Origin: Aigarchaeota archaeon | Lineage (GTDB): Archaea > Thermoproteota > Nitrososphaeria_A > Caldarchaeales > Wolframiiraptoraceae | Direction: 5' to 3' | Length of the DNA: 64,000 nt | Assembly: GCA_025059205.1 (NCBI GenBank) | Contig: JANXDS010000001.1 | Coordinates: forward strand, 76,014 to 140,013 | Shown here: positions 24,498 through 57,065 of the stretch, one piece after another | How the letters are laid out: each line of letters begins with the position of its first letter | How positions within the stretch are numbered: position 1 is the first letter of the stretch | Translations under genes and position numbers: made by a program | The notes under the pieces: model-generated | Told to the model about the DNA's origin: nothing | The model's database searches: none | The model's input: only the letters and a program-made list of their open reading frames with translations

Positions 24498-24505
24498 TAG
24501 ATTGA

Positions 24506-36493: not shown

Positions 36494-36709
36494 ATGTGCT
36501 TAGCTATACCCGCAAAGGTTATCGAAAAAACCGGTAACATAGCCAAGGTAGATTTTGGTGATAGTACACTCAGAGAGGTTGACGTATCGCTTGTAGAAGT
36601 TTCAGTAGGACAGTATGTGCTTGTTCACGCTGGCTACGCCATACAAGTTCTTGATGAAGAAGAAGCGCTCAAGACGATAGAGTTGTTGTCAGATATGCTT
36701 AGCGAATGA
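36494..36709 (+). CDS. hypC: hydrogenase maturation factor HypC
   Basis: 71 aa, MCLAIP N-terminus with Cys2. Confidence 0.85.
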   Translation: MCLAIPAKVIEKTGNIAKVDFGDSTLREVDVSLVEVSVGQYVLVHAGYAIQVLDEEEALKTIELLSDMLSE

Positions 36710-38981: not shown

Positions 38982-39010
38982 GCTAAGCTAACGGTGTCAT
39001 CGGTGGTTTT

Positions 39011-40003
<993 letters not shown>

Positions 40004-40007
40004 TGTA

Positions 40008-41597: not shown

Positions 41598-42643
41598 TAG
41601 TGGTTGGCGGCGGCCCTTCTGGTGCCGTATGTGCAATAAAATGCGCTAAGATGGGTTTTAGGACAATGTTGTTAGAAAAATCGACGAGTTACAGAAAGAA
41701 GGTCTGCGGAGGCATCACACCGACTATAACAAAAGATTTACTAGAACTTGAGTTAGGGCTAAGCATTCCCAAGTCGGTGCTATCTGTACCGGAAAGATTA
41801 GGGCTTTTCTACGTACCGCCCAGTGGTAAGCACAACGGTGGTACGATGAGAAATTATTCATTAATTAATTTATGCAGGGTTGCCTTCGATGAATGGTTGA
41901 GAGAAGAAGCCAGTATGCATAACGTTCATCTTTTGTACCGAGCAGAATTTAATGCGCTGAAGCTAGGGAAGCATAGCGTATTGAAGGTAAGAGTGAATGG
42001 TAACCTAGAGTTCTTTGAAGCTACTTACGTGGTTGGCGCCGACGGTGCTTTTTCAAAAGTTCGTTCTTGCTTATTTCCAAACTATAAGCTCAGAATGCTT
42101 ACGGTCATACAAGAAGTCTGGGATGCTGAAGGCGATTTTCAAGATAATTTTTACGTAATCCTCAACGGCAAAATCGTACCGACTTATGGTTACGTAATTC
42201 CCAAGGACGAAAATTTTCTCATAGGATTTGGTTTTGAAAGCGGAGCGGCCGACCCAAAGTTTTACAGAGATGGGCTTTTGGGTTTATTAAAAGACGAGTT
42301 CTCATTTAAGCCTATAAAAATGAATGTAAGAGAAGTCGCGCCCATCCCATTTGCCCTATCACCTTTAGGACTAGGGAATGTTGTACTTGTTGGTGATGCT
42401 GGAGGCTTATGTAATCCTTTCTCAGGGGAGGGCATAAGGTTCGCGATCGAGAGCGGGGCTATCGCGGCAGAGTCCATTAAAATCTCACATGAAGAGGATG
42501 CAAATTTGATAACCATCTATGAATCGAGGATGGAGTGGTTGAAGGAGTTTTTACTTAAAATGCATACATTCGTAAGCGAGCTTGACGATGAGAAAAGAGA
42601 AGCTTTCGTCAAGGAAGAACTGTCGCGTCTTAACGTATTTTAG
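41579..42643 (+). CDS. FAD-dependent geranylgeranyl-reductase-family oxidoreductase (LipT-like member of the lipoate assembly module)
   Basis: FAD motif VIVVGGGPSGAVCA and a GGR-like length of 354 aa. It overlaps the ligase gene by 19 nt. Confidence 0.6.
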   Translation: MHRFDVIVVGGGPSGAVCAIKCAKMGFRTMLLEKSTSYRKKVCGGITPTITKDLLELELGLSIPKSVLSVPERLGLFYVPPSGKHNGGTMRNYSLINLCRVAFDEWLREEASMHNVHLLYRAEFNALKLGKHSVLKVRVNGNLEFFEATYVVGADGAFSKVRSCLFPNYKLRMLTVIQEVWDAEGDFQDNFYVILNGKIVPTYGYVIPKDENFLIGFGFESGAADPKFYRDGLLGLLKDEFSFKPIKMNVREVAPIPFALSPLGLGNVVLVGDAGGLCNPFSGEGIRFAIESGAIAAESIKISHEEDANLITIYESRMEWLKEFLLKMHTFVSELDDEKREAFVKEELSRLNVF

Positions 42644-42651: not shown

Positions 42652-43698
42652 TTAGCAAATTCTTGGGACAGGATCACCGATCGGTGGAGGTAAAAGCCTC
42701 CTACCTCCTACTATCGTCTCAAGCACAACGTGCTCGTACTTATCAGTAGCCTCACCTATTATTTCGGCGTCCCTTCCTTCCGGCGTTTCACGGATGGCCT
42801 CTAATACCGCCTCGGCCATCTGAGGCACCACAGCAATTATAACTTTTCCTTCGTTTCCTACTTCTAGGGGATCTATGCCTAGCATCTCACAAGCAGCCCT
42901 AACACCCTCCCTTATCGGTATCTTATACTCTTTTATGTAGATTCCGACCCCTGACTTTTGAGCCCATTCATTGAGGGCATTTGATAGGCCGCCTCTTGTC
43001 GGGTCCTTCATAGCAACAATTCCACCAACCTCTAAGGCCTTCCTTATCATTTTGTTAAGGGGCGCGACATCGGACTTTATGATGGTATCAAACCCGTAAC
43101 CTTCTCTTGAGGATAGTACGGCTATACCGTGGTCGCCTATAGTTCCAGAAACTATTATCTTATCACCTGGTCTAACATTAGAGTCAAGGAGCCACCTCGT
43201 CTCGAGATTCCTGTAACGTCTGACGACGCTAAGGTTGTGATCTAACGCCGCCTGTCTCTTCCCGATACCGGACGAATTTATAATAAACCCGTCCAAGGCA
43301 CCTCTCTCCACGACTTTTGTATCACCTGTTGCTACGAATACGTCAGCCTCCATACATGTCTGTCTTATGCTCACGATTATCCTCTCAAAATCCGATAATG
43401 GGAACCCCTCTTCTAAAACGAAACCCATGGCGAGAGCAACGGGTTCAGCTCCTAGCACAGATATGTCGTTCACGGTTCCTGATACTGCCAGCCTACCTAT
43501 ATCGCCGCCTGGAAAGAATAACGGTTTGACAGTATAAGAATCTGACTTTATCACGATACCGTCTACGACCGCTGCGTCGTCCAGCGCCTCCAGAGGAACC
43601 TCAGCACTTCCCCAGGCAAGGTTCTTAAGTATGAAGTCCTTAATCAGAGATTGCATTACAACGCCTCCCGCACCATGGGCCATCGTTATCCTATCCAA
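42652..43698 (-). CDS. hypE: hydrogenase maturation carbamoyl dehydratase HypE
   Basis: AIR-synthase-like fold, N-terminal MAHGAGG, and a C-terminal PRIC motif ending the protein. Confidence 0.9.
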   Translation of the reverse strand: MDRITMAHGAGGVVMQSLIKDFILKNLAWGSAEVPLEALDDAAVVDGIVIKSDSYTVKPLFFPGGDIGRLAVSGTVNDISVLGAEPVALAMGFVLEEGFPLSDFERIIVSIRQTCMEADVFVATGDTKVVERGALDGFIINSSGIGKRQAALDHNLSVVRRYRNLETRWLLDSNVRPGDKIIVSGTIGDHGIAVLSSREGYGFDTIIKSDVAPLNKMIRKALEVGGIVAMKDPTRGGLSNALNEWAQKSGVGIYIKEYKIPIREGVRAACEMLGIDPLEVGNEGKVIIAVVPQMAEAVLEAIRETPEGRDAEIIGEATDKYEHVVLETIVGGRRLLPPPIGDPVPRIC

Positions 43699-43848: not shown

Positions 43849-44922
43849 ATGCGCCCACAACTCCGTAAAGTCATAAGGTTGGGTAGGTCTGCTCTAGCCG
43901 TGACGTTACCTAAAGAGTGGACGTCCTTGGTTAAGCTAAAAGAGGGCGACTACGTTCTCATAGAGGATATCGAAGAAAACTGTATCAGAATGAAGAAAGC
44001 TGATAGTGAGTCTGAGACTCCGCCCGCCGTCTGTGTAATTAACGCGGATATTTGCACCTCACAAAATATGCTATGGAGGATTATAATCGGTGCGTATATG
44101 GTCGGTCACAAAACCATTTGGATACAGACGAAGAATAGTTTTAAACCTAGCGATATTGAAGGGATAAGGACTCTAACGGATATATTAGTAGGACTTCACG
44201 TAACAGAGCAGACCGATAACATAATCATACTTCAAAGTCTTGCTGACCCTTCCAGACCTACGATTGATAGCTCTATCCGTAGACTCCATTTAATGTCTTC
44301 TAGCATGTACGATATGGCGTTAGGTGTCCTTTTAGGTGAAGAGAATCCAAAACGGCTTGAAGATATCAAGGCGCTTGAGATAGAGTGCGATAAAGTTTAC
44401 TGGCTTGTAACAAGACAACTGCTCCTGTCAGTGAACGATCGGGCCTTAGCAAAGGAGCTTGGTATAAGGTCTAACCTTTGGCTTTTAGGAAATAGGGCGG
44501 TCGTCAGGATTTTGAAGAGTATAGTTACAGACAGTAAGTACATATCCAGATATGTCGAAAATTTGCTGAAGCTTGATTATAAGCTTGACACAGAGACCAT
44601 CCGTTGGTTTGCCAACATACGCGACGAGGTTAGAAAGATATCAAACATGGCAGTCGATTCTCTTATTACAAGAGACTTGCTGAGCGGCAATGATGCTATT
44701 GAATCCGCTAACAAGCTTGTGAAGACTCTTGAGGCGGCGGAGATGGTGGCTCCAAAAAAATATGACGTTAACGTTTGTCCGTCCCTATCGGGTATACTCA
44801 GGTCTTTAAGAAACATCGTTCTAAACTACAGATACATAGGAGAAGTTGCGATCAACAGATCGGTTGAGGAATCCAACGAGTACGTGAGCATAGATACCGG
44901 CAGTTTTGAGGATAAAGTCTGA
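43849..44922 (+). CDS. AbrB/SpoVT-like N-terminal domain fused to PhoU-like helical domains (archaeal PhoU-type regulator)
   Basis: The N-terminal VIRLGRSALAVTLPKEW...GDYVLIE swapped-hairpin motif is followed by ~250 aa of helical repeats. A paralog lies at 46629. Confidence 0.5.
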   Translation: MRPQLRKVIRLGRSALAVTLPKEWTSLVKLKEGDYVLIEDIEENCIRMKKADSESETPPAVCVINADICTSQNMLWRIIIGAYMVGHKTIWIQTKNSFKPSDIEGIRTLTDILVGLHVTEQTDNIIILQSLADPSRPTIDSSIRRLHLMSSSMYDMALGVLLGEENPKRLEDIKALEIECDKVYWLVTRQLLLSVNDRALAKELGIRSNLWLLGNRAVVRILKSIVTDSKYISRYVENLLKLDYKLDTETIRWFANIRDEVRKISNMAVDSLITRDLLSGNDAIESANKLVKTLEAAEMVAPKKYDVNVCPSLSGILRSLRNIVLNYRYIGEVAINRSVEESNEYVSIDTGSFEDKV

Positions 44923-45503
44923 ACACATACTTAAAAAGGAATCAAAACTTTAATGAACGATGAAACTAGGTCAAACACTTTAACTTTTTAACGTAAGACT
45001 ACAATGGGATCGTTCCACGGGTGCCGAGGCCTTCACTAAAGGAGGTAGTGTTCGTCTGGACATGCCTAGGACTTCGGTGGTTTAGGAAGATATCCGTGTC
45101 CGGATGAGGTATTCCTTTCTGCATTAGGTGGGTGCATGATAACTACGTTCGTTTACTTTCAGCGACGATTGGGCACAAAGATAGAAGGGGTTAGAGGTTG
45201 ACGTTAAAGGAAAAGTTAAACTGGATAACGGGAGGTATAGGGTCACCGATGCAAGAATTAAATTAAAGGCTTTAGTAGGAGACTCGGAGTTTGAGAACGT
45301 TACGGGTTGTGCGAAATTAGCTATCGAACACTGTCGCATAACTAAGTCCATAAAACCATCCATCGCTTTAAATGTAGAGTACGAAGTCGTTAACCTAGGC
45401 AATCCCTAAAGCGCGAACTATTTTAAAAAATTTAAAAGAAATATTTTTAAAAATGCTTATCTGTAATTTTGTAATTAAATTTGAGGAAAAGGGTGTGGTG
45501 GCC

Positions 45504-45932
45504 ATGGTGAAGCTATTCGATAAGTACGAGTTTCCAGAAGGTTTGTACTACTCCAAAGATCATCTATGGTTAAAGCTCGAGGGCGACCTTGTGAGGGTTG
45601 GTGTTACAGACTTAGCACAGCAAGCGGCTGGCCCAATAGTATACGTAAGAGTCGTACCAAAGGGTAAGGTTATAGAGGCGGGGAAGCCCATAGCGACCGT
45701 AGAAACCGGAAAATGGGTTGGATCTTTCAAGTCTCCCGTGTCTGGAACGATAGTCGAGGTTAATGAAGCCTTGAAGTCTCAGCCTAAACTTCTGAACGAA
45801 GACCCATATGGGAAAGGGTGGTTAGCTCTCATAAAACCTTCAAAGCTTGAGGAGGAGTTGAAAGGTTTATTCTCAAAAATTGAAGATATGATTCCGTGGC
45901 TAAAAGACGAGATGCCGAAGATGATCAAATAG
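45504..45932 (+). CDS. GcvH-like lipoyl-carrier protein (LbpA-like); start moved to MVKLFDK
   Basis: GcvH fold. The lipoyl-lysine sits in ETGKWVGSFKSPVSG exactly 8 residues before the conserved SPVSG proline, as in E. coli GcvH. A poly-T terminator follows the gene. No gcvT or gcvP lies nearby. Confidence 0.8.
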   Translation: MVKLFDKYEFPEGLYYSKDHLWLKLEGDLVRVGVTDLAQQAAGPIVYVRVVPKGKVIEAGKPIATVETGKWVGSFKSPVSGTIVEVNEALKSQPKLLNEDPYGKGWLALIKPSKLEEELKGLFSKIEDMIPWLKDEMPKMIK

Positions 45933-46091
45933 TTAGCTCAAAGCTACATAGCATTAAAGAGTTAGCTAATAATACATACTTTAAACCTACTTTTTCGTTT
46001 TTTATTAAGGGTCCTAGCGCTCAGGTCTAAACTCTTTAACGCACAAATTTTTACAACAGCATTTAGTGATACAGCCGTCAGTCCGTCCACG

Positions 46092-46499
46092 CTACTCTGG
46101 TAACTTTAACTCAACTAAATATTTTATGTCTTCTTCGTAGTTAATCGGCCTAAACACCGCGATCCATCCCTCGCCGTAAGGATCTTCGTTTATAAGGTCA
46201 GGCTTTTCTCTTAACTTCTCGTTAACTTCAACTATCCAGCCGGACACTGGGCTTCTTAGAAGCATCACACGCGTTCCATACTCTACGGAGCCGAAAGGAT
46301 GCCCCCTGCTGATCAGACGTCCCTTGGGAAGGACTCTAACAAACTCTATCGTGCCCATATGCTCTGCGATACTCTCCACAAGACCGACGCGTACAAATAT
46401 CTCAGAATTCTCGCTCATTTGTTCAAACCTTGCCCATATCCCACGACTAAGCTTTGAAACGAATAGTTTTCCTAAGAGCTCAGGAACATACATTTCCAT
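46092..46499 (-). CDS. GcvH-like paralog apparently lacking the lipoyl-lysine (Thr at the canonical position)
   Basis: GcvH fold (SPVSGWIVEVNEKL...NEDPYGEGWI). The position 8 residues upstream of the SPVSG proline is T in SVEYGTRVMLLRSPVSG. Confidence 0.65.
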   Translation of the reverse strand: MEMYVPELLGKLFVSKLSRGIWARFEQMSENSEIFVRVGLVESIAEHMGTIEFVRVLPKGRLISRGHPFGSVEYGTRVMLLRSPVSGWIVEVNEKLREKPDLINEDPYGEGWIAVFRPINYEEDIKYLVELKLPE

Positions 46500-46628
46500 T
46501 TTTCTTAAGCCACCTCAAAATGAGGCTAGTTATAGCACGATATTGCTCATAACGTGTTGTTTCATATAACTGGTAAATATTACGTATACGTTACACATAA
46601 ATACCAGACGTAAAATTTTTACACGGAA

Positions 46629-47720
46629 TTGGGCACAGAAAGTAGCCGCTTATACGGTTATACATTAAGAAAAGTAATGAAGCTCGGACGATCTGCGTTA
46701 TGCGTTACGTTGCCGAAAGCCTGGGTTGCCGCCGTTGGGATAAAGGAGAATGATTACTTAGCCGTAAGACAAACCGGCAACTCTTTAGAATTAAGCAAAG
46801 TTGAACGGGAAGAAGGAGTTGGGTCGCCGGTTTGTATAATAAATGTGGACGCATGCATAGAGCCCCATTCTATAACTAGAGTTTTGATAGGAGCTTACAT
46901 AGCCGGCCATGATACGATCTGGTTACAATCCAAAAGACCTTTTACGCAAAAACAAATTGAAGAAGTTAATTCGGTGACGAGGAAGCTTATCGGAGTGCAC
47001 ATCGCAGATAGCTCCGAAAATATAATAATTATTCAGAACCTCTCAAATCCCCTAAGGCCTTCCATGGACAGTTCTATCAGAAGGTTTCATAACCTAGTAA
47101 TGGACATGCTTGAAGGTGCCGTGAGTATGCTCTCAAGTGGCAATCAAGATATGATTAAGCGTATTATGAGTATAGGTGAAGAGTGTGACAGGCTTTATTG
47201 GTTAACGTTGAGGCAACTTATAAGAGCAGCCAGCGACCCTGGCGTAAGGGAAGCTCTCGGAATAAAATCAACCCTATGGTTGCTTGGCAACCGATTGGTC
47301 CTGGTTTTACTCAAGAAGGCTGTCAACCTGAGCGAATTGATTGCTCTTTCAGCATACGAAATATTTACGAACGGGTGCGGAATTGAGAAGCGTATTACAG
47401 AGTGGTGCGCGGATTTCTGTACAACACTAAAGCACATCTCTCAAAATACGATAGATTCCCTCATGTCGAAGGATCTTTTGCTGGCAAATAAAACAATATC
47501 CCAGATCGACAACTTGATTGGAGAGAGAATAGAGGCCGGCGAAAAAATGGCCAGCAGTAGTAGATCACTCAGACATCATCTCTTCCGAATAATATATGCT
47601 TTTAAGGAAATTGGTTTGTGCTACCGTCAGATCGCAGAGGTGGCGATAAATAGGTCCCTAGAAGAATCCGGAAAATTCGTTACGATCGAATGTCCACCCA
47701 AGAATTCGGAGGAAGGTTAA
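46629..47720 (+). CDS. AbrB/SpoVT-like + PhoU-like regulator, paralog of 43849..44922
   Basis: N-terminal VMKLGRSALCVTLPKAW...NDYLAV followed by a PhoU-like helical region. It is divergent from the second gcvH-like gene. Confidence 0.5.
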   Translation: MGTESSRLYGYTLRKVMKLGRSALCVTLPKAWVAAVGIKENDYLAVRQTGNSLELSKVEREEGVGSPVCIINVDACIEPHSITRVLIGAYIAGHDTIWLQSKRPFTQKQIEEVNSVTRKLIGVHIADSSENIIIIQNLSNPLRPSMDSSIRRFHNLVMDMLEGAVSMLSSGNQDMIKRIMSIGEECDRLYWLTLRQLIRAASDPGVREALGIKSTLWLLGNRLVLVLLKKAVNLSELIALSAYEIFTNGCGIEKRITEWCADFCTTLKHISQNTIDSLMSKDLLLANKTISQIDNLIGERIEAGEKMASSSRSLRHHLFRIIYAFKEIGLCYRQIAEVAINRSLEESGKFVTIECPPKNSEEG

Positions 47721-47907
47721 AATTTATAGTAAATCGTTTTATTGGACGATCAAGCGGCTTATATCTACACTTCGATCTTCTTGTCGATTTATCGCTCGTA
47801 GCTTTTTTTTCTAACGTTTAAAGACTTACCTAACGCGATAATAAAGCACAGCACTTCAAAATGAAGATCCGGAAAGTCCACGTCGAACCGCTATTAACTG
47901 TAGTAAA

Positions 47908-48378
47908 CTAAAGCTTAATCTCTTCTTCAATCATCTCGATGCATTTTGGTACGGCAGCTTTTACCTCTTCACTCAGCCCCTCTTGATAGCAGCTTGGTTT
48001 TTGGATGGTTATTCCAAAAATCACTACCTCGTCCGGAAAAGATTCTCTATCGATAGTTTTAACGAGTTCGACAGAGGTTACGAAGTCCATATCATGAAGG
48101 CCGATGAATCTTTTCGACGCCCTCCTTAGGTCTTCGAGGGTTAGTCTTATTATTTTTCCAGGAGCTACGCCCTCTTCAACTAAAGCATCTACGATTATTG
48201 CTTTCTTATAACCAAGCATTGTTTCCGCCGCGGTTAAACCTCCGGCACTCAACTCGACAACATCAACAGACTCGCCTAACCTCTTTCTTAACTCGGATAC
48301 GATAATCAAGCCTAAGGCATCGTCACCAAGTATCGGATTACCAAGCCCTATTACAACTATGCCGCTTTTCTTCTTCAA
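47908..48378 (-). CDS. hycI: hydrogenase maturation endopeptidase (HycI/FrhD family)
   Basis: 156 aa with N-terminal GLGNPILGDDALG. It is last in the mvh operon and overlaps mvhA by 4 nt. Confidence 0.8.
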   Translation of the reverse strand: MKKKSGIVVIGLGNPILGDDALGLIIVSELRKRLGESVDVVELSAGGLTAAETMLGYKKAIIVDALVEEGVAPGKIIRLTLEDLRRASKRFIGLHDMDFVTSVELVKTIDRESFPDEVVIFGITIQKPSCYQEGLSEEVKAAVPKCIEMIEEEIKL

Positions 48379-49835
48379 GGACGCTTTATCTCAACCAAAA
48401 GTTTTCCATTCGCATCGTATATGCAGACGTCAAGCGGCATTTGTCCTGGCAAAGCATGTGTTCCACAAGCCAAGCATGGGTCATAAGCCCTGAATGCCAT
48501 CTCTATCATGTTGAGCAGACCGTCGCTTATATTGCCGCCTTTTATGAGTTGCTGCGAGGCCTTCTTTACGGACATACATATACCTGCATTGTTGTGTGTC
48601 GTCGCGACTATTAGGTTAACGTCGGTCAGTATACCGCCCTGGTCCGTCTTATAATGGTGTATGAGCGTACCCCTCGGCGCCTCAACGATGCCGACACCTT
48701 CGTCAGGGGTGTTTGTTAGAGGAACCCTAAAGTCCTTCCCGGTTATATCCGCATCTTTACTCAATTCAAGGGTTCTTTCAGCGGCGTTAAGTATCTCTAT
48801 GACCCTCGCCCAATGGTATCCGAGCGTTGCATGAGCTGGCTTACCCAAGGTTTCTTTGAACTTTTCATAGGCTTCCTGCGCATAGGGTGTCGTAAACCCT
48901 TCGGCCACGTTGAGTCTGGCAAGGGGGCCTACTCTGTACGCGCCTGATGCTTCACCATCGACTATTCCCTTCCAGCCCAGTTCCTTCAAGTACGGGAACT
49001 TGAGATAAGTCCACGTCTCCACATGCTCGCCTATGTATTTAAGATAGTCTTTTGGATGAAATTCCGCGTAGATTCTTCCTTTCGGATCCACGACTCTGAC
49101 TTTTCCGTCATAGTAATTAACCAGCCCCTTTTCATCGACCAAACCCATATAGTAAGTCTCATGCTTGTATACATCGCCCATGAGTAAGTCAAGGTATTTT
49201 TGATTTTTCAGAACTACGTCCTCGAAAATCTTTAGTGTAAATTGGGCGAACTCCACCAGTTTCTTTGCACCTTCTTCTATTTCCTTTCTGTCATCTTCTG
49301 TCAAAGATTTGGAGACACCACCCGGAACAGCACAAGTCGGTATTATTGCTCTTCCGGCAAGTTTCTCCAGGAGCTTCGTTGCCACCATCCTGGCGTTTAT
49401 GACTCTCTTTCCAGTTTCCAGTCCAACCTTTCCAATAAGACCAAGAATGTTCCTTTCAGCCCTCGGTGCATCAGGTCCAACTACGAAGTCCGGCGCGGAA
49501 AGTGTGTAGAATACTGCCGAATGGTCGTGTATGTAGAATATATTATAGGCCAATTCCCTTATCTTCTTCGCAGTTTCCGGCAACTCGGCTCCGTAGACGG
49601 CATCCACGGCCTTAGCCGATGCCATGTGATGTGCCCATGGACAGACGCCGCAGATCCTTGAGGTTATTATAGGCATTTCCTCGACAGGTCTCCCTATACA
49701 GAACTTCTCGAAGCCCCTGAACTCAACTACCTGATAGTAGGCGTCCTTAACGTTGCCGGCTTCGTCTAAAAATATCGAAATCTTACCGTGCCCCTCAAGC
49801 CTAGTTATTGGCTGAATTGTTACGACTTTCTTCAT
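48375..49835 (-). CDS. mvhA: [NiFe] hydrogenase large subunit, MvhA-type (group 3c)
   Basis: N-terminal RICGVCPWAH (L1) and C-terminal DPCLACGTH (L2) Ni-binding motifs. Size 486 aa. Confidence 0.9.
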   Translation of the reverse strand: MKKVVTIQPITRLEGHGKISIFLDEAGNVKDAYYQVVEFRGFEKFCIGRPVEEMPIITSRICGVCPWAHHMASAKAVDAVYGAELPETAKKIRELAYNIFYIHDHSAVFYTLSAPDFVVGPDAPRAERNILGLIGKVGLETGKRVINARMVATKLLEKLAGRAIIPTCAVPGGVSKSLTEDDRKEIEEGAKKLVEFAQFTLKIFEDVVLKNQKYLDLLMGDVYKHETYYMGLVDEKGLVNYYDGKVRVVDPKGRIYAEFHPKDYLKYIGEHVETWTYLKFPYLKELGWKGIVDGEASGAYRVGPLARLNVAEGFTTPYAQEAYEKFKETLGKPAHATLGYHWARVIEILNAAERTLELSKDADITGKDFRVPLTNTPDEGVGIVEAPRGTLIHHYKTDQGGILTDVNLIVATTHNNAGICMSVKKASQQLIKGGNISDGLLNMIEMAFRAYDPCLACGTHALPGQMPLDVCIYDANGKLLVEIKRP

Positions 49836-50809
49836 TCTCTAACACCCCATACCCTACGCATGATTGATTTTGGCAAAGTGTATCTGTAAAACGTCCCTAA
49901 CGGGTCCTTTATCTGCAGTACAAGTTTTCTAACGTCCTCATCACTTACACCCGCCTCACCTTCTAGGCCTATCACGGAAGATAAGGCAGATAGCATCCTG
50001 GCGCCCTGATCGCGGGACTCTGATGTCGGTCCCATACAACCCCTGCAGGGAATGTTCACAGTCGGACATATCGCGTCGCAACCACCTCTGGTTGCAGGGC
50101 CCATGCAAACTATACCTTGCTCAAGAAGACACTTTTCGGCATCCGGAACAATCTGATGGTAACGTTTTATCTCAGTTATTCTTTTATTCTCACGGATACG
50201 CTTACAATCATCGCAGACAGACTTCATCGAACCGAATACTGTGCCCTTTGGTGGAAGTTTTCCGGAAAGTGCAGCGACCAGCGCGTCAGCCGTTAATTTG
50301 AGTGGTGGTGGACAGCCTGGCAAATAATAATCCACTTTGACCACTTGATCGAGTGATTTGACAGTCTCAAGGAGTTCTGGTACTGTTAACTCTCCACCGT
50401 CAACCTTCGTTATTTTATACGGCACGATTCCTTGCTGGTTTACGGTGCTTAAACTCTTTATGTATGCCTTTTGAAGGATACTGTCCCGTGAGGCGACGTT
50501 TGCGAGACCGGGTATACCGCCGAAGCAAGCGCACGCTCCAAATGCTATTAGATTCTTTGCCTTTTTCCTCGCAAGTTTAGCCATCTCTTCCGTCTCGTCG
50601 TTGTTCACGGCACCTTCAAAGAGCACTATATCTATTGAACCGTCCGGTAGTTTCTCCAAGTCCTCCAACTTTAAGTCTGCGGCCGTCGGCCAGTAAGCTA
50701 TTTCCGTAGCTATTAGAACATCAATTATCTTTTCGCCCAAGTCCAGGAGTGAATAATCGCAGCCAGCGCAGTTCGCTCCGGGTATTATGGCCAGCTTTGG
50801 TTTACTCAA
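49832..50809 (-). CDS. mvhG: [NiFe] hydrogenase small subunit MvhG; start corrected to TTG (MSKPKLAIIPGANCAGCD) preceded by GGAGGTGG
   Basis: The small-subunit N-terminal Cys motif CAGCD. The TTG start overlaps the mvhD stop (TTGA). The longer 365-aa ORF in the track would overlap mvhD by 124 nt. Confidence 0.8.
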   Translation of the reverse strand: MSKPKLAIIPGANCAGCDYSLLDLGEKIIDVLIATEIAYWPTAADLKLEDLEKLPDGSIDIVLFEGAVNNDETEEMAKLARKKAKNLIAFGACACFGGIPGLANVASRDSILQKAYIKSLSTVNQQGIVPYKITKVDGGELTVPELLETVKSLDQVVKVDYYLPGCPPPLKLTADALVAALSGKLPPKGTVFGSMKSVCDDCKRIRENKRITEIKRYHQIVPDAEKCLLEQGIVCMGPATRGGCDAICPTVNIPCRGCMGPTSESRDQGARMLSALSSVIGLEGEAGVSDEDVRKLVLQIKDPLGTFYRYTLPKSIMRRVWGVRE

Positions 50810-51246
50810 ACTACTGCCACCTCCTTCCTCAGTTTTTCTGCGATGCGGTTTGGTCCTAGTTTCCTTATCTGTTCGACAAATTCTTTCGCGATGTTGGCAA
50901 ACCTTTCTCCTTCCGATGCGGAAACCCATTCTAACCTTAATCTTTCTTTTTCAACACCAAACTGTTCAAGTAACCTCTCCAAAAGCATAATCCTCCTTCT
51001 GGTCTTGTAGTTTCCAGATATGTAATGACAATCGCCAGGATGACAACCAGTAACGAGAACACCATCCGCACCGTTTGCAAAAGCCTCGAGTATGTGTACT
51101 GGGTTGATTCTACCGGAACACATTACTCTTATTACTTTAAGGTTATGGGGGTACTGTAGTCGGCTGGTTCCGGCCAGGTCCATTCCAGCGTAGGAGCACC
51201 AGTTACATGCAAAAACCAATATGTTTGGCTCAAAATCCTTTTCCAT
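50806..51246 (-). CDS. mvhD: methyl-viologen-reducing hydrogenase delta subunit MvhD
   Basis: 146 aa, N-terminal ILVFACNWCSY with a [2Fe-2S]-type Cys pattern, between hdrA and mvhG. Confidence 0.85.
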   Translation of the reverse strand: MEKDFEPNILVFACNWCSYAGMDLAGTSRLQYPHNLKVIRVMCSGRINPVHILEAFANGADGVLVTGCHPGDCHYISGNYKTRRRIMLLERLLEQFGVEKERLRLEWVSASEGERFANIAKEFVEQIRKLGPNRIAEKLRKEVAVV

Positions 51247-51252
51247 TTTAAC

Positions 51253-53232
51253 TCACCCCGTAAGCGTTCTTACCATTGCAGAAATCTGTTCGTCATCAAA
51301 CCCGAGTTGTTGGGCTGCTCCAGATGGACATGCAGCTACACATACTCCGCAGCCCTTGCACTTGCTTATGTCGACCTTTGCTACCTGCTTCCCGTCTTCC
51401 TTCTTAACCAGTGATATTGCGTCAAAAGCGCATAGGGGTTGGCATATGCCACAACCGCTGCACAAGTCTTCGTTAATCGAGGATACATAAGGTATAGTTT
51501 CTACGTAGCCCCTCGACATCAGCGCTATGGCCGAAGACGCTGCAGCACCTGCTTGAGCTACTGTATCAGGTATATCCTTTGGTCCTTGTACTGCACCGGC
51601 CAAGAATACGCCATCAACGGACGTCTCAGTAGGTCTGAGCTTTGGATGCAACTCTAACGCAAAACCATCTGGGCCCACCGAACACTTTAGCACCTTGGCA
51701 ACTTCTTTAAATGTTGGATGAGGAACTATGCCCGTCTCAAGGACGATGAGATCTGGTCTAAGTGTTACAACCCTATTTGTGTTCGCATCGAATACGTCGA
51801 AGTAGAGGCTTCCATCAGCATCTTGTAATATTTCCATCGGGCTACCTCTTATGAACTTGACGTTTTCGTAACTTCTAATCCTCTCGTAGAACTCTTCGTA
51901 ACCTTTCCCGAAGGTTCTGATGTCCCTATAACATATGTATACTTCCGCATCCGGTATGTGGCTCACTATGTAGTAAGCGTGCTTCAATCCTGCAACGCAC
52001 CCGAACCTGCAGCAGAACCTTAGATGCTTTTCGTCCCTCGAACCGACGCAGAGGATTATAGCAACCTTTTTCGGCTCTTTTCCGTCGCTAGGTCTGAGTA
52101 TGTGCCCCTTCGTCGGTCCTGTGGCAGAAACAAGCCTCTCCAGTTCCAACCCAGTTATTACGTCCTTGTACTTACGATAACCATATTCTGGCATATTCTT
52201 TGCAACATCGTACAAACCGTATCCAGTAGCCAAGATTATTGCCCCAACTTCAAGCTCTATCTCTTCTGGTTTCTGGTCGAAGTTTATGGCTTTGGGAGGA
52301 CAGAATTTCTCACAGGCTCTACACGTCCCTTTCTGGAAATACATACAATGCTCAGGATCGATTACGGGAATAAGCGGGACCGCTTGCGGAAATTCAAAGT
52401 ATATTGCCTTTCTCTTTCCAAGTCCCAAGTCGAACTCGCTCGGCACGGTCCATGGACATTTTGTGACACAAACACCGCAACCGGTACATTTTGCCTCATT
52501 AACATACCTTGGTTTCTTCAGCAGTTTAACTTTAAAGTTTCCGACAGAACCGTCAATACTTACAACGTCTGTATAGGTGTGGAGGGTTATATTTGGATGT
52601 CTGCTCGCTTCTACCATAAGAGGTGTCAGTATGCACTGAGAGCAGTCGAGTGTCGGAAACGTCTTATCTAACCTAGCCATGTTTCCCCCTATGCTGGGTC
52701 TTGTCTCGACTAAGTGGACTTCGAAACCGGCGTTTGCTATATCAAGCGAAGCTCTGATGCCTGCTATCCCACCACCTATAACCAGCGCCCTCGGTATTAC
52801 CTTGACCTTTTCTACCTTCAATGGTTTTAACAACCTGGCTTTGGCGACTGCAGCTTTAACTATTTTAATGGCTTTTTCCGTCGCTGCAGATTTTTCCTTC
52901 TCGTGAACCCAAGAACAGTGTTCCCTTATATTAGCCATCTCGAAGAGATATGGATTAAGACCCCCCCTCTCAACAGCCCTCTGAAATGTAGGTTCGTGCA
53001 TTCTCGGCGAGCAGGCAGCTACGACGACCCTGTTAAGTTTGTGTTCCTTTATATCCTCTACTATTATATTCTGGCCCGGTTGAGAACACATGAACTGATA
53101 ATCTTTCGCAACCACGACGTTAGGTACTTTTGATAATTCTTCAGCCACTTTCTTTACGTCAACCACGGCTGCTATGTTAACGCCGCAGTGGCATACGTAA
53201 ACACCTATTCTAATCTCTTCGCCTTCAACCAT
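51253..53232 (-). CDS. hdrA: heterodisulfide reductase subunit A (FAD, multiple 4Fe-4S)
   Basis: 659 aa with N-terminal GVYVCHCG, the FAD motif LVIGGGIAGIRA and several CxxCxxCxxxCP ferredoxin motifs. Confidence 0.9.
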   Translation of the reverse strand: MVEGEEIRIGVYVCHCGVNIAAVVDVKKVAEELSKVPNVVVAKDYQFMCSQPGQNIIVEDIKEHKLNRVVVAACSPRMHEPTFQRAVERGGLNPYLFEMANIREHCSWVHEKEKSAATEKAIKIVKAAVAKARLLKPLKVEKVKVIPRALVIGGGIAGIRASLDIANAGFEVHLVETRPSIGGNMARLDKTFPTLDCSQCILTPLMVEASRHPNITLHTYTDVVSIDGSVGNFKVKLLKKPRYVNEAKCTGCGVCVTKCPWTVPSEFDLGLGKRKAIYFEFPQAVPLIPVIDPEHCMYFQKGTCRACEKFCPPKAINFDQKPEEIELEVGAIILATGYGLYDVAKNMPEYGYRKYKDVITGLELERLVSATGPTKGHILRPSDGKEPKKVAIILCVGSRDEKHLRFCCRFGCVAGLKHAYYIVSHIPDAEVYICYRDIRTFGKGYEEFYERIRSYENVKFIRGSPMEILQDADGSLYFDVFDANTNRVVTLRPDLIVLETGIVPHPTFKEVAKVLKCSVGPDGFALELHPKLRPTETSVDGVFLAGAVQGPKDIPDTVAQAGAAASSAIALMSRGYVETIPYVSSINEDLCSGCGICQPLCAFDAISLVKKEDGKQVAKVDISKCKGCGVCVAACPSGAAQQLGFDDEQISAMVRTLTG

Positions 53233-54107
53233 TAGACCCTCATCTCCTCGAGTAAAACTTCGACCGGACTCATGTTCAAGTTCATCCCCAGCTCCTTCTC
53301 GTCTAAGCCTAATGCAAGACCCAACAACTGCGTATAGTAAAGCGCTGGGATCGAAACGCTTTGGTCGCCGGTTATCGTTTTAGCAGCATCTTGCTTTCCG
53401 TCGAGCATTTCTATACAATACGGACACAGGCTAGTTATAGCCCTCGAACCCACAGCCAGTGCCTTTTTTATCCTAGAGGCCGTAACCCTTATCGCCGCCT
53501 CAGGCGAATAAGGAAGTATGGCTGCCCCACAACATTCATACTTTTCGGGATAATCTCTCGCCCTAAGGCCTATGGCCTCGATCAACCTATCCAACTTAAG
53601 TGGACCATTTCTTGTCTCTGGCCTCGGGAACTCCGTCGGTCTAATCAGATGACAGCCAGGATGAGAAGAAACCGGCATTTCCGGTAGCTTCCTCTTTATC
53701 GCAGATGTTATCTTTTCAACACCTATCTTGTCGTGCAAAACTTCTACCGGATGATAAACCGTTGCTTTGCCTGTGTATCTTAACCCTTCCTCTCTAAGAA
53801 GCTCGTTCACAGCATTCATAAGTGGCGGATTCAACTTTAACTTGTAGATCGTTTCCGTTAGGTTTAGGTGGCAACCGTTACATGGTGAGACGATATCCAA
53901 ACCTTGCGACTCGGCTATCGCCATGATCCTTGCGCACGCATAATATGGGTAGAACCTACTTATCCCCTTCATAGGAACTCCGCAACAATTCATATCCTTA
54001 GGGTATTCCAACTCTACACCTAATAGTGGTAAAGTGCCCCTCAACGATAACTCATAACCGTACTGTTTCGTCGCGGTGGTGCAACCTAAATAAAGTAGAA
54101 ACCTCAT
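53232..54107 (-). CDS. hdrB: heterodisulfide reductase subunit B (two CCG domains)
   Basis: CCGVP and CCGAA Cys-rich CCG-domain motifs. Size 291 aa. Confidence 0.9.
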   Translation of the reverse strand: MRFLLYLGCTTATKQYGYELSLRGTLPLLGVELEYPKDMNCCGVPMKGISRFYPYYACARIMAIAESQGLDIVSPCNGCHLNLTETIYKLKLNPPLMNAVNELLREEGLRYTGKATVYHPVEVLHDKIGVEKITSAIKRKLPEMPVSSHPGCHLIRPTEFPRPETRNGPLKLDRLIEAIGLRARDYPEKYECCGAAILPYSPEAAIRVTASRIKKALAVGSRAITSLCPYCIEMLDGKQDAAKTITGDQSVSIPALYYTQLLGLALGLDEKELGMNLNMSPVEVLLEEMRV

Positions 54108-54109
54108 AC

Positions 54110-54538
54110 CTAAATAGCCCCCTTCAACCTTTCAAACCCTATTAGCAGTACGTGTTGCCTGAACTTCTCGATATCTTTCGGTTTTGGCATCTCGGGTAGG
54201 CCCAGTTCCGTCCTAGAAACTTCCTCAAAATCCTTTGACATTATATACGTAGGTTCTTGAATGTGGCCGACCTTCAATATGGATTTTGCCATTTCAACGA
54301 AGGATTTCGGAGGCGCTATCCCTCTTTCGATAGCCTCGTTTCTAAGTGACATAACTACCTCAAACGGCGAAACTCGTTGGGGACAGTATTCTACGCACTT
54401 TAAGCAAACCGAACATGCCCATATCACATCGCTATTTATAAGCTCATCAGAATAGCCTGCCTTTACTAGGGCCACGATTTCGTGGGGTCTGTACTTATTG
54501 ACGACTTTTGTGGCTGTACATCCGCTAGAGCACTTCAT
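54110..54538 (-). CDS. hdrC: heterodisulfide reductase subunit C (short form)
   Basis: 142 aa with the ferredoxin-type motif CSVCLKCVEYCP plus N-terminal Cys residues. It is first in the hdrCBA-mvhDGA operon. Confidence 0.78.
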   Translation of the reverse strand: MKCSSGCTATKVVNKYRPHEIVALVKAGYSDELINSDVIWACSVCLKCVEYCPQRVSPFEVVMSLRNEAIERGIAPPKSFVEMAKSILKVGHIQEPTYIMSKDFEEVSRTELGLPEMPKPKDIEKFRQHVLLIGFERLKGAI

Positions 54539-54773
54539 ACATTGATAACATAGTTGCGGCCTAAGTTCCCTTATTGCATCTTCTAGTGAAATTTTAAACG
54601 TAAATACTCAGCCCCCTAACTTAATTAGGAAACAAATGCCTTAAATTTAAGTTTCAAATATTATTTATGATTCGCGCTCCACAAAAACTAATGATGTAAA
54701 TACTTTAATTATTAACTTGATTGCCGATAACGTCTACTATATGTTGTAGACTAGACTATGTTTTATATGGCTA

Positions 54774-57065
54774 ATGAAAAAGATCAGGGCTGAGGTAAGC
54801 GTTTCGGGCATAGTTCAAGGGGTGGGCTTTAGACCGTTCGTTTACAGAATCGCCGTTAGTAGGGGACTTAGGGGATTCGTCCAGAATCTAAAGGACGCAT
54901 CCGTTAGAATAGTCGTAGAAGGACCTGAATCACACATAAGGTCTTTCTTAGATGCTTTGGTTGAAGAAAAACCACCTTTAGCTCGTATAACCAGGATCAA
55001 TGTAAATTACTCGGAACCAAAGAACGAATTCGTGGATTTCAAGATACTAAAGAGTTCAGAGCAGGGCTCGCTCACAAGCTCCGTGATACCGGCGGATGTT
55101 GCAATATGCGACGAATGTGTTAAGGAACTCTTAAATCCTACTGATAGGAGGTTCGGCTACTTCTTTATAACGTGCACAAACTGTGGGCCAAGATTTACTG
55201 CTATATTGGACACACCGTACGACAGGCAAAATACATCTATGAGAGATTTTCCGATATGCGAGTTGTGTAGTTCTGAATATATGGACCCATCGAACAGGAG
55301 GTTTCACGCTCAAACGATAGCATGCCCCGCTTGTGGTCCAGTAGTTTATCTAACAACGAACGATGGAGAAATTGTTGCATGCAAAGAACCGATAAAGGAA
55401 GCAGCTAAGCTTATCGACGAAGGATATATAGTAGCCGTAAAAGGGAACGGCGGCTTTCATGTAGCAACAGCAACGACAATCTCAGAGCCTATAGTAAGGC
55501 TTAGGAAGGCTAAGCATAGACGACAGAAACCCTTTGCAATAATGGCTAAAGATCTAAAGACCATAAAATCTTTTGCCATAATTAATAAACAAGAGGAAGT
55601 AGTACTCACGTCACCGGCACGCCCCATCGTTTTATTACGTAAAAGTGAGGACTACTATCTATCTGAAGAGATAGCGCCGGGCCTACACAACATAGGTGTT
55701 ATGTTACCATATACAGGCCTACATCTTTTACTGCTGCTCAATAGTAAGGAGCCGGCATACGTTATGACGAGCGCAAACCCGTCGGGCGAGCCAATAGTTA
55801 TACATAATCAGGAGGCCTATGCGAGAATTGGAAAAGATGTTGATTATTTGCTCCTTCACAATCGGGAAATCGTGAATAGATGTGATGATTCTGTAGTAAG
55901 GGTAATTGGTGAGTCTATCAGTTTTATACGCCGTTCAAGAGGTTATGTGCCAGAGCCGATTATTTTACCACATAATTCTAATAAAAACGTCTTTGCTTTA
56001 GGAGGTGAACTTAACGTTACTGCTTGTATCCTCATGGGTGATAAAGCGTTCTTAACGCAGCATATTGGCGATGTAGAATGTGTAGAAACTTACGAGTTTC
56101 TGAAGTCGGCGGTTTACCATCTGGCTAAGCTTACCAGAGCGCAGCCGGAGGTGATAGCCCACGATCTACATCCAGGATTCCAGACAACTAGGCTTGCGGA
56201 GGAACTAGCTGAAAGGTTTAGGATACCAACGTTGGCTATCCAGCACCATCATGCGCATGTCGCCTCAGTAATGGCAGAACATGGGTTAGAGGAAGTCGTA
56301 GGAATAGCATGCGATGGATTTGGTTATGGTAGCGACGGCTTGGCGTGGGGTGGTGAAGTTCTTTTATGCGATAGTAGCGGTTACCGCCGTTTAGGACATC
56401 TAGAAAACCATCCAATGCCAGGTGGTGACCTAGCCGCAAAGTATCCAGCGAGGATGGTCGCAGGAATATTGTTCGGTTCGGACATATGTGAAAGATGGTT
56501 ATTTTCGAATGTTGATAAACTCCCAAGAGGAAGGGACGAAGCAGAACTGATACTGAAACAGATTAAAAGTGGAAGAAACATAAAGACTTCGAGTGTCGGC
56601 AGAGTTCTGGATAGTATTGCGGCCATATTGGGCGTATGTCACGAGAGGACCTACGAGGGCGAGCCTGCTATGAAACTTGAATCCGCAGCGATAGGCGGAT
56701 CAGATATCTTGGGGTTGAAACCAGAAATAAAAGGTAGAGTCCTGCTCACAAAGCATATTGTAGAATCGATAGCTGAAATAGCGATGAAAGGTTTAAACCA
56801 AGAGAAGATAAGGGACCTTGCCTTCTCAGCCCAGAATTATTTAGCGCTAGGATTAGCTGAGCTCGCCTTGGAAATAGCCGCTAGCGAAGGTGTGAAGAAC
56901 ATTGTTTTTACAGGTGGTGTGGCATACAATGAGCAAATAACGATGACAATACGACGAGCAGTCGAGACCAGAGGTTTGAAGTTTTACACAAATACGAAGG
57001 TTCCACCTGGCGATGGTGGACTTTCGTTCGGTCAAGCAGTAATTGCAGCCAAATTAAGCGATTAG
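54774..57065 (+). CDS. hypF: [NiFe] hydrogenase maturation carbamoyltransferase HypF
   Basis: 763 aa with an acylphosphatase domain (VSGIVQGVGFRPFV), two zinc-finger pairs (CxxC...CxxC), a YrdC domain and a Kae1-like C-terminal domain. Confidence 0.9.
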   Translation: MKKIRAEVSVSGIVQGVGFRPFVYRIAVSRGLRGFVQNLKDASVRIVVEGPESHIRSFLDALVEEKPPLARITRINVNYSEPKNEFVDFKILKSSEQGSLTSSVIPADVAICDECVKELLNPTDRRFGYFFITCTNCGPRFTAILDTPYDRQNTSMRDFPICELCSSEYMDPSNRRFHAQTIACPACGPVVYLTTNDGEIVACKEPIKEAAKLIDEGYIVAVKGNGGFHVATATTISEPIVRLRKAKHRRQKPFAIMAKDLKTIKSFAIINKQEEVVLTSPARPIVLLRKSEDYYLSEEIAPGLHNIGVMLPYTGLHLLLLLNSKEPAYVMTSANPSGEPIVIHNQEAYARIGKDVDYLLLHNREIVNRCDDSVVRVIGESISFIRRSRGYVPEPIILPHNSNKNVFALGGELNVTACILMGDKAFLTQHIGDVECVETYEFLKSAVYHLAKLTRAQPEVIAHDLHPGFQTTRLAEELAERFRIPTLAIQHHHAHVASVMAEHGLEEVVGIACDGFGYGSDGLAWGGEVLLCDSSGYRRLGHLENHPMPGGDLAAKYPARMVAGILFGSDICERWLFSNVDKLPRGRDEAELILKQIKSGRNIKTSSVGRVLDSIAAILGVCHERTYEGEPAMKLESAAIGGSDILGLKPEIKGRVLLTKHIVESIAEIAMKGLNQEKIRDLAFSAQNYLALGLAELALEIAASEGVKNIVFTGGVAYNEQITMTIRRAVETRGLKFYTNTKVPPGDGGLSFGQAVIAAKLSD

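Follow-up and report, generated by a model that had tools for sequence, protein, structure and literature searches.

Which disulfide is reduced by the heterodisulfide reductase HdrABC outside methanogens has been a question for two decades, with DsrC and unknown thiols as the usual guesses. The question is raised anew by a 64,000-nt stretch (hereafter the window) of contig JANXDS010000001.1, positions 76,014 to 140,013, from an Aigarchaeota archaeon of the order Caldarchaeales (assembly GCA_025059205.1), in which a Mvh-type [NiFe]-hydrogenase/HdrABC operon shares an island with a small GcvH-fold protein, denoted GcvH1, and with a set of genes predicted to lipoylate it. The operon has its full set of genes and is accompanied by hyp and hycI maturation genes, and the island as a whole seems to be a thiol/disulfide redox island in a non-methanogenic, Terraquivivens-like Caldarchaeales archaeon. 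We tentatively propose, at somewhat less than an even chance, that CCG-domain enzymes use lipoyl-GcvH1 as a redox partner with a protein-bound disulfide/dithiol, and that the enzyme concerned in this locus is the HdrB subunit of Mvh-HdrABC. The locus and its relatives offer a testable candidate, a lipoyl carrier with its own maturation machinery within a hydrogenase/Hdr/hyp island, which can be produced recombinantly.

The hydrogenase-Hdr operon and a predicted lipoyl protein beside it

The list of open reading frames (ORFs), together with Pfam and NCBIfam scans, placed hdrCBA-mvhDGA-hycI in a single tight minus-strand operon where neighbouring genes overlap or nearly abut (Table 1), as had been claimed in an earlier annotation made from the letters alone (the sequence-only reading). 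MvhA retains both nickel-iron ligand motifs, RICGVC and DPCLACGTH, 325 codons of mvhG can be aligned to the MvhG of a relative (locus L097), and mvhG and mvhD are contiguous with hdrA. HdrB contains two non-cubane cluster motifs (C9..C41C42..C76xxC79 and C162..C192C193..C228xxC231), and its closest solved structures are methanogen HdrB proteins aligned over the full length (9sfi_C, E 5e-48; 5odc_B, E 1e-46). All Mvh/Hdr subunits scored below the NCBIfam equivalog cut-offs (HdrB, 180.8 bits against 345; VhuA, 421.8 against 800), and the match of HdrA to NF040770 was below the exception-level cut-off of 1100.

The 5′ end of hdrC is damaged. In L097 the hdrC ATG lies 11 codons farther upstream, and in the window it is destroyed by small indels (−1, +2, +1, +1) which give rise to in-frame stops, including a TGA at 54610-54608. 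The sole remaining ATG/GTG/TTG codon, at 54538, falls after the first CxxC of the first cluster motif, and the extended open frame encodes CYQCMKCSSGC. Within the start region (54538-54640), a Shine-Dalgarno-like element, AGGGGG, is followed by GTA. An assembly error, genuine decay or the use of a non-canonical start codon may account for the state of this 5′ end.

Two GcvH-fold genes lie in the same island, with gcvH1 at a distance of 7.3 kb from hdrB. The sequence-only reading had taken both as lipoyl carriers that lack gcvT and gcvP and are each paired with an AbrB-PhoU-like regulator. The two PF01597 domains, the pairing with two paralogous regulators (39-40% identity to each other, each adjoining one GcvH-fold gene) and the absence of gcvT and gcvP from the 64 kb, searched by tblastn with E. 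coli GcvT and GcvP, were all borne out; the second carrier was not. Lys70 of GcvH1 (VETGK70W) aligns to the lipoyl-lysine of solved GcvH structures, the nearest being Thermus thermophilus GcvH, whereas GcvH2 has Thr76 (VEYGTR) at this position and its orthologues have Met. GcvH1, read from the Met at 45504, and GcvH2 are both devoid of cysteine. GcvH1 scored 106.8 bits with TIGR00527 (cut-off 115.85) and 133 bits with the subfamily model PRK01202 (cut-off 117), and GcvH2 was below both cut-offs. Orthologues of regulator 1 were found in L001, L007, L008 and L091.

We then cross-tabulated, over all fetched loci, the neighbours of GcvH-like genes with the residue after the lipoyl lysine, where a Trp (motif E[TS]GKWVG) defines the K-W type. 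Bacterial gcvH loci from a genome-collection scan with the GcvH1 alignment were re-used as the control set; one of the two patterns in that scan also matches canonical GcvH, and about eight archaeal loci were informative. Among the matches listed, a CCG-domain gene was present within 6 kb of 18/22 K-W genes and 0/59 canonical-motif genes (Fisher p = 1.6e-14, and 3.6e-12 once near-identical loci were collapsed), a ligase was nearby in 16/22 and 2/59, LipS was nearby in 10/22 and 2/59, and gcvT/P adjoined 0/22 and 16/59, respectively. For an independent sample, metagenome contigs were scanned for the K-W motif by exact matching to a DNA pattern. None of the 120 contigs of this sample contained gcvT/P, and of the 56 contigs of at least 6 kb, 45 carried a CCG-domain gene and 55 carried Hdr/CCG or lipoylation genes. 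When both samples were pooled into 142 K-W genes (22 from the fetched loci and 120 from the metagenome contigs), gcvT/P stood beside none of them, compared with 16 of the 59 canonical genes. The motif is also common to bacterial GcvH-like genes amid hdr-like, lplA and lipS genes (L013, L018, L054, L035, L087), an arrangement familiar from sHdr-lbpA clusters. Considering the motif, the neighbourhood and the dedicated maturation genes together, GcvH1 is classed here as a predicted lipoate-binding protein of the LbpA type and not as a glycine-cleavage H protein. The K-W motif is a practical marker for splitting LbpA-type proteins from true GcvH, both of which are now annotated as "glycine cleavage system protein H".

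The predicted maturation genes, lipS2-lipS1-lplA/DUF116-lipT (37866-42643), sit between hypBACD and hypE. They lie on the same strand as hypBACD, and the 46-nt gap between hypD and lipS2 holds a TATA-like element; co-transcription of the hyp and lip genes is possible from this arrangement. LipS2 shares 91% identity with its orthologue in L001 at a ratio of nonsynonymous to synonymous substitution rates (dN/dS) of 0.05. The DUF116 part of the ligase has the eight invariant cysteines of the DUF116 alignment, and the AF2 model of the ligase has a predicted local distance difference test (pLDDT) score of 87.6. The gene content matches that of the lipS1-slpl(AB)-lipT-lipS2 clusters described previously (PMC10332631). 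The canonical route, lipA-lpd-lipB (2-2825), is located 35 kb from this set, so that two lipoylation routes occur in one genome. Archaea very rarely own both lipoyl synthase types (Tanabe et al. 2023), and organisms with the sHdr-LbpA system likewise have two routes, the dedicated one serving only LbpA (PMC10332631). Lpd might link lipoyl proteins to NAD. Just upstream of the window start, before lipA, there may be an operon for a 2-oxoacid dehydrogenase. The gene inventory of the sequence-only reading was incomplete in that both lip gene sets, the osmC pseudogene and the damaged hdrC start had been missed.

Table 1. Genes of the window discussed in the text, in order of position, with the evidence for each assignment
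Feature	Position	Strand	Evidence and remarks
lipA, canonical lipoyl synthase	2-745	+	PRK05481 326 bits > 203; Radical_SAM; cut by window start
lpd, dihydrolipoyl dehydrogenase (E3)	726-2129	+	TIGR01350 521.7 bits > 408.8
lipB, octanoyl/lipoyl transferase	2154-2825	+	TIGR00214 171.8 bits > 83.55
hypB, [NiFe]-hydrogenase maturation	35388-36071	+	Pfam cobW, HypA, HypD and TIGR00075 across hypBACD
hypA	36074-36445	+	Pfam HypA
hypC	36494-36709	+	tblastn; MCLAIP N-terminus
hypD	36734-37819	+	Pfam HypD; TIGR00075
lipS2-like radical SAM lipoyl synthase subunit	37866-38981	+	best match NF053743 LipS2 228.8 bits, cut-off 270
lipS1, radical SAM lipoyl synthase subunit	39011-40003	+	NF053742 LipS1 234.9 bits > 230
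Lipoate-protein ligase (LplA catalytic and LplB-like C-terminal) fused to Cys-rich DUF116	40008-41597	+	PF21948, PF10437, PF01976
lipT-like FAD oxidoreductase, geranylgeranyl-reductase family	41579-42643	+	TIGR02032 154.7 bits, cut-off 158.8
hypE	42652-43698	-	AIRS and AIRS_C domains; 96% identity to L001 HypE
AbrB/SpoVT-PhoU-like putative regulator 1	43849-44922	+	PF04014 and PF01895, each just under cut-off
osmC pseudogene	44987-45394	+	tblastn 49% over 142 aa to intact L001 OsmC; frameshifts, stops
gcvH1, predicted LbpA-type lipoate-binding protein	45504-45932	+	PF01597 128.5 bits; lipoyl-Lys70 in ETGKWVG
gcvH2, GcvH-fold paralogue without lipoyl lysine	46092-46499	-	PF01597 87 bits; alignment
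AbrB/SpoVT-PhoU-like putative regulator 2	46629-47720	+	PF01895 29.6 bits; PF04014 26.6 bits
hycI-type hydrogenase maturation endopeptidase	47908-48378	-	PF01750
mvhA, [NiFe]-hydrogenase large subunit, Mvh/Vhu type	48375-49835	-	PF00374; best match NF041785 VhuA 421.8 bits
mvhG, hydrogenase small subunit	49832-50809	-	PF01058 89.6 bits; start chosen from L097 comparison
mvhD	50806-51246	-	PF02662 FlpD 195 bits
hdrA, full-length flavoprotein/polyferredoxin subunit, 659 aa	51253-53232	-	NF040770 HdrA2 863 bits, model positions 1-641
hdrB, catalytic CCG subunit	53232-54107	-	PF02754 twice; Cys pattern
hdrC	54110-54607 (open frame); sole canonical start 54538	-	TIGR03290 81.9 bits, extended frame
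hypF	54774-57065	+	five HypF domains; divergent from hdrC
TrmB-family regulator	57190-57987	+	PF01978, PF11495; position conserved in L097

The island has six promoter regions, and a search for a shared regulatory motif found no k-mer of 9 nt or longer in three or more of them. Scans for sigma-70 promoters and intrinsic terminators gave results at or below shuffle expectation, such models being unsuited to archaea, and an Rfam scan returned tRNA-Glu only. Apart from the island, a Phage_cement_2 domain protein (21526-21960) is located amid Pfam-less ORFs (20556-21524, 22397-23677, 23679-24497, 26612-27709), together with a DNA methylase (25416-26615) and a change of sign in the GC skew near 22 kb; the region 20556-27709 may be a provirus or a mobile-element remnant. 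Just upstream of the hyp genes, a minus-strand gene (33564-35144) encodes a radical SAM protein whose N-terminal zinc ribbon is of the HMPTM type (PF23545). We take HMPTM to be a methanopterin-related pterin methyltransferase family, which would be unexpected in a non-methanogen.

Neighbourhood in relatives and loss of HdrD-like modules

The relatives were compared as loci of 20 kb (L-numbers). The nearest relatives of the island proteins are found in metagenome-assembled genomes (MAGs) of Caldarchaeales ("Aigarchaeota"), including Ca. Terraquivivens, at 86-91% protein identity. A lipoyl protein next to hdrCBA was observed in several divergent archaeal lineages with rearranged gene order, and mvhDGA is also present in at least four of them, namely the window, L097, L094 and L009. 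In L097 (HdrB 91% identical to that of the window), hdrCBA-mvhDGA-hycI is followed by NarI-HdrD and the GcvH3 module. In L094 (HdrB 60%, HdrA 71% and MvhA 65% identity), a K-W-type gcvH with GlcD/HdrD genes (GcvH-FADox-CCG) lies 4 kb upstream of hdrCBA-mvhDGA-hycI, and in L009 (GcvH1 56%, HdrB 43%) the order is hypFED-lplA-gcvH1-unk281/CCG fusion-osmC-hdrCBA-mvhDGA-hycI. L001-L003 and L010 have the gene order of the window and end within mvhA. Two further loci have hdr genes only: L008 (GcvH1 57%, HdrB 50%) with a gcvH set-AbrB-NarI/HdrD-osmC-hdrCBA, and L007 (GcvH1 59%) with gcvH1-lplA amid several hdrA, mvhD and hdrBC paralogues. In a bacterial locus, L017 (1244-10044; a MAG labelled Betaproteobacteria), a K-W GcvH immediately precedes hdrC-hdrB-full-length hdrA-mvhD, to which further HdrA/MvhD paralogues are added, with no hydrogenase in range and no separate HdrD-like gene detected at the locus. 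As such, the link between a lipoyl protein and hydrogenase-linked HdrABC is recurrent within one archaeal clade and rare overall.

Save for two clean gaps, window and L001 are collinear, with a nucleotide identity of about 80%. Positions 45934-46115 of the window stand for 2.7 kb in L001 that encode an HdrD-like protein (Fer4 and CCG domains, 389 aa) and a GlcD-like FAD oxidase (475 aa), both in an operon headed by the gcvH2 orthologue (13096-13497). Positions 47728-47921 stand for 4.8 kb that encode two further HdrD-like proteins (411 and 405 aa), a protein of 281 aa with no Pfam match (unk281; L001:15962-16807, minus strand), a third GcvH and a NarI-like membrane subunit. The Pfam-less protein of about 280 aa is always found beside, or fused N-terminally to, an HdrD-like Fer4 and CCG protein near GcvH genes; it is fused in L007 and L009 (L009:10464-12494, minus strand) and absent from the window. 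Since homologous modules stand beside GcvH1 in distant genomes (L004-6, L007, L008, L009, L091, L093, L012, L171, L174, L196), the HdrD-like modules are probably ancestral and lost, at least locally, from the window lineage. At the two junctions of the window, a search for remnants of the missing modules found nothing beyond chance 9-12-mers, and the outgroups are the sole basis for preferring deletion over insertion. In L097 (18488-20709), the gcvH3-unk281-HdrD module is broken up into numerous short ORFs and has a 111-bp inversion, which suggests ongoing module loss in the clade.

The osmC gene, which is intact beside gcvH1 or hdrC in L001, L008, L009 and L091, is interrupted in all three frames in the window. 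All retained genes are under purifying selection, with dN/dS of 0.02-0.16 overall, 0.08 for gcvH1, 0.13 for the lysine-less gcvH2, 0.05-0.11 for the lip genes and 0.035-0.07 for hdr/mvh (hdrA, 0.035). The gcvH and lip genes, at dN/dS of 0.05-0.13, gave no sign that selection on them had relaxed once the HdrD modules were lost, a comparison in which a dS of about 1 would hide recent relaxation. Taken all together, the island of the window appears to be a minimal, partly eroded version of the system, and L001, L009 and L094 are better experimental subjects.

A candidate mechanism and its competitors

In the proposed scheme, the LplA-DUF116 ligase would attach octanoate to Lys70 of GcvH1, and LipS1/LipS2 would sulfurate the octanoyl-Lys70 with electrons supplied by LipT. 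The resulting lipoyl disulfide/dithiol would act as the redox partner of CCG enzymes, a role that the coenzyme M-coenzyme B heterodisulfide (CoM-S-S-CoB) or DsrC plays elsewhere. H2 would be oxidised by MvhAG, and electrons would pass via MvhD to the HdrA flavin, from which one pair would travel through HdrC and the two non-cubane clusters of HdrB to reduce lipoyl-GcvH1 and the second pair would go to ferredoxin. HdrB is put forward as the partner in the window because it is the only CCG protein left in the island. Textbook potentials are −414 mV for H2, −500 mV for ferredoxin, −290 mV for lipoamide and −140 mV for CoM-S-S-CoB. Because lipoamide lies near −290 mV, the reaction would be near equilibrium and may run backwards, with dihydrolipoyl-GcvH1 and reduced ferredoxin yielding H2. 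Dihydrolipoyl-GcvH1 could also be drained to NAD+ by Lpd and, in relatives, by the OsmC peroxidase, NarI-HdrD (quinone) and GlcD-HdrD (2-hydroxyacids). A wider claim would be that, in non-methanogenic archaea, lipoyl-GcvH1 takes the place of the "heterodisulfide" as the physiological substrate of a genuine hydrogenase-linked HdrABC and is a central hub linking H2/ferredoxin, quinone, 2-hydroxyacids, NAD and peroxide removal; we regard it as possible, though on the unlikely side. If the proposal is true, the role of lipoate would extend beyond 2-oxoacid and glycine metabolism and sulfur oxidation to H2 metabolism and flavin-based bifurcation/confurcation, it would become clear why these archaea have two lipoylation routes, and methanogen-type Hdr would be bridged in evolution to the bacterial sHdr-LbpA system.

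Several observations weigh against lipoyl-GcvH1 as the partner of HdrB. With the potentials above, H2-driven bifurcation onto lipoamide would yield about −7 kJ/mol, compared with −36 kJ/mol for CoM-S-S-CoB. The local copy is eroded: the original hdrC start is destroyed, osmC is a pseudogene and the 2.7 kb and 4.8 kb stretches are missing. The two cysteines that most LbpA proteins possess are missing from GcvH1, and judging from its sequence GcvH2 cannot be lipoylated at the canonical site. No [NiFe]-hydrogenase occurs on any of the 120 K-W metagenome contigs, and L095 and L096 (HdrB 45-46% identity, short HdrA, no Mvh) are HdrBC loci without gcvH. In the wider family, the neighbours are HdrD/GlcF-like CCG proteins, GlcD-like flavoproteins, unk281 and OsmC and not Mvh-HdrABC, the link to which is secondary to a deeper link with HdrD-like CCG proteins. 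The sequence-only reading had named lipoyl-LbpA as a hypothetical substrate of HdrB, or the reverse, and had asked for synteny of mvh-hdr with gcvH. The LbpA type of GcvH1, the recurrent adjacency to hdrCBA and the synteny in L097, L094 and L009 speak for its claim; the HdrD-like partners of the wider family, the small energy yield and the loci and contigs just listed do not.

We regard the first competitor as possible, on the unlikely side. The lipoyl protein would serve the HdrD-like modules and OsmC, and Mvh-HdrABC would be a mere neighbour that reduces something else, for example DsrC or a low-molecular-weight disulfide. GcvH1, GcvH2 and GcvH3 would then work with GlcD-HdrD (2-hydroxyacid), unk281-HdrD and NarI-HdrD (quinone), and the lipoyl system of the window would be an orphan left behind when its real partners were lost. 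In the relatives, each additional GcvH paralogue indeed shares an operon with a CCG protein of its own (gcvH2-FADox-CCG389 and gcvH3-unk281-CCG411), unk281 and CCG are fused in two loci, and HdrD modules accompany GcvH1 with no Hdr/Mvh within 10 kb in L004-6, L012, L014 and L093 (L091 ends before a possible hdr). Precisely these modules are missing from the window, where osmC is dead, the gcvH3 module is fragmenting in L097, and DsrC was proposed as the acceptor of an Aigarchaeota Mvh:Hdr (Hua et al. 2018). However, gcvH1, gcvH2 and the four lip genes are still intact and constrained in the window, gcvH1 is a stand-alone gene in no operon with an HdrD-like gene, and the adjacency to hdrCBA recurs in rearranged order at 43-60% HdrB identity. 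The K-W gene of L017 directly precedes hdrCBA-mvhD at a locus with no separate HdrD-like gene detected, and no dsrC or dsrAB was present among the window ORFs scanned.

A mainly antioxidant role is improbable in our view. Here, dihydrolipoyl-GcvH1 would reduce an OsmC/Ohr-type peroxidase and be recharged by Lpd/NADH, Hdr-type enzymes or both, a function since lost in this genome. An osmC gene does lie beside gcvH1, or between gcvH1 and hdrC, in L001-3, L008, L009, L010, L091 and L171, and lpd is present in the window. Protein-bound lipoyl groups reduce OsmC/Ohr, and the Trichomonas vaginalis OsmC is proposed to need the L and H proteins (PMC5384416). The window, however, has retained gcvH1 and the lip genes while its osmC is a pseudogene; no OsmC occurs in L004-6, L007, L093 and L094, and 1 of the 120 metagenome contigs has one. 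An antioxidant role is moreover compatible with lipoyl-GcvH1 as the HdrB partner rather than opposed to it.

It is very unlikely that GcvH1 acts as the H protein of ordinary glycine cleavage, or as a lipoyl relay of 2-oxoacid dehydrogenases, with T and P proteins encoded elsewhere and a coincidental adjacency to mvh-hdr. The match to PRK01202, the annotation as GcvH in public MAGs, the solved T. thermophilus GcvH as best relative and a K-W gene without redox neighbours in L092 would fit such a protein, and lpd with lipA/lipB implies that conventional lipoyl enzymes exist in the organism. The TIGR00527 score is nevertheless below its cut-off, gcvT/P are missing from the window and from the side of every K-W gene, the protein has a lipoylation machinery apart from LipA/LipB, and synteny with CCG/Hdr genes is conserved. 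Equally improbable is archaeal sHdr-type sulfur oxidation with LbpA as sulfur carrier or electron acceptor in the conversion of sulfane sulfur to sulfite, since, even though an LbpA-type protein with LplA/LipS1/LipS2/LipT is the hallmark of sHdr accessories and Aigarchaeota are often predicted to be sulfide oxidisers, there is one hdrCBA in place of hdrC1B1A-hyp-hdrC2B2, HdrA is full-length and followed by mvhDGA, HdrB is nearer to methanogen HdrB (167 bits, full length) than to the HdrB of sHdr-type contigs (about 29-30% identity), and GcvH1 has neither LbpA cysteine. TusA, DsrE and rhodanese genes, described as constant companions of sHdr-LbpA systems (PMC11094781), were also not found by Pfam among the ORFs between 35 and 58 kb that make up the island, the scan of small ORFs being less exhaustive in the rest of the window.

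Relation to known systems

Coupling of LbpA to Hdr is established in sulfur oxidation (PMC6067878, PMC10332631, PMC11094781). The sHdr-LbpA systems of Hyphomicrobium denitrificans, Thioalkalivibrio and Sulfolobaceae (Cao et al. 2018; Tanabe et al. 2023/2024) resemble the window in having a GcvH-fold lipoate-binding protein beside CCG-domain Hdr subunits, a dedicated lipoate ligase with LipS1/LipS2/LipT alongside a canonical lipoylation route, and the K-W motif after the lipoyl lysine, as seen in the bacterial hdr-like/lplA/lipS loci. In contrast, the window has one hdrCBA set, its HdrA full-length and accompanied by MvhD and a [NiFe]-hydrogenase, and no hdrC1B1A-hyp-hdrC2B2, no sulfur transferases in the island, a lysine-less paralogue and a ligase-DUF116 fusion, and its chemistry is predicted to be linked to H2/ferredoxin and not to sulfur oxidation. 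It also differs in the missing LbpA cysteines, which in most LbpAs are conserved near the N- and C-terminus, some archaeal LbpAs being excepted (Cao et al. 2018, PMC6067878). A joint transfer of hdr and lip genes out of archaea has been a speculation of Tanabe et al. (2023), and the archaeal arrangement described here may be the ancestral state behind the bacterial sHdr-LbpA system and its archaeal-type lipoylation genes.

The methanogen MvhADG-HdrABC complex (PDB 5ODC) shares with the window six subunits in one operon, the same cofactor motifs and a full-length HdrB alignment. The window differs in its non-methanogenic Caldarchaeales host, its scores below the cut-offs and the lipoyl protein and maturation genes embedded in the cluster, and CoM-S-S-CoB cannot be assumed as the substrate. 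Mvh-type hydrogenase-Hdr systems were reported in other non-methanogens, as Mvh:Hdl in Archaeoglobus profundus (Mander et al. 2004) and as Mvh:Hdr in Aigarchaeota JZ bin_15 (Hua et al. 2018, PMC6053391), with DsrC or another carrier proposed to feed sulfite reduction; a lipoyl protein was not noted in these reports. The DsrMK(JOP)-DsrC system is similar to the island in that a CCG catalytic subunit, DsrK, acts on the disulfide or trisulfide of a small dedicated protein, and a comparable NarI-type membrane partner is encoded in relatives (NarI-CCG405). The carrier here would be a lipoyl-lysine arm and not a cysteine pair, so the analogy is one of mechanism only. The hydrogenosomal OsmC of T. 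vaginalis, cited in PMC5384416, offers a stand-alone H protein without P/T as lipoyl carrier and an OsmC partner, whereas it is eukaryotic, driven by NADH and the L protein and uncoupled from Hdr and hydrogenase, and the osmC of the window is a pseudogene.

The closest precedent lessens the novelty of our proposal. For Culexarchaeia, Kohtz et al. (2022, PMC9723716) had already suggested that GcvH bears the alternative disulfide on which HdrB/HdrA2B2C2 act, and their "Ehe" cluster, like the window, combines hydrogenase, Hdr and GcvH in a non-methanogenic TACK archaeon. That cluster contains a group-4 membrane-bound hydrogenase, HdrBC and HdrA2B2C2, and SdhA with CdhA, and no dedicated lipoylation genes were reported for it, in contrast with the cytoplasmic Mvh-type hydrogenase and the full lipoylation set amid hyp genes in the window and the HdrD-like modules in its relatives. 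The paper on Wolframiiraptoraceae/Terraquivivens makes no mention of Hdr, Mvh or lipoate, and in the literature searched we came upon no account of an mvhADG-hdrABC-hyp island that also encodes an LbpA-type protein together with lipoylation genes of its own. Therefore, what is new here is this combination, a predicted LbpA-type protein and its own lipoylation genes within a hydrogenase-Hdr-hyp island, and the LbpA-Hdr theme itself is known.

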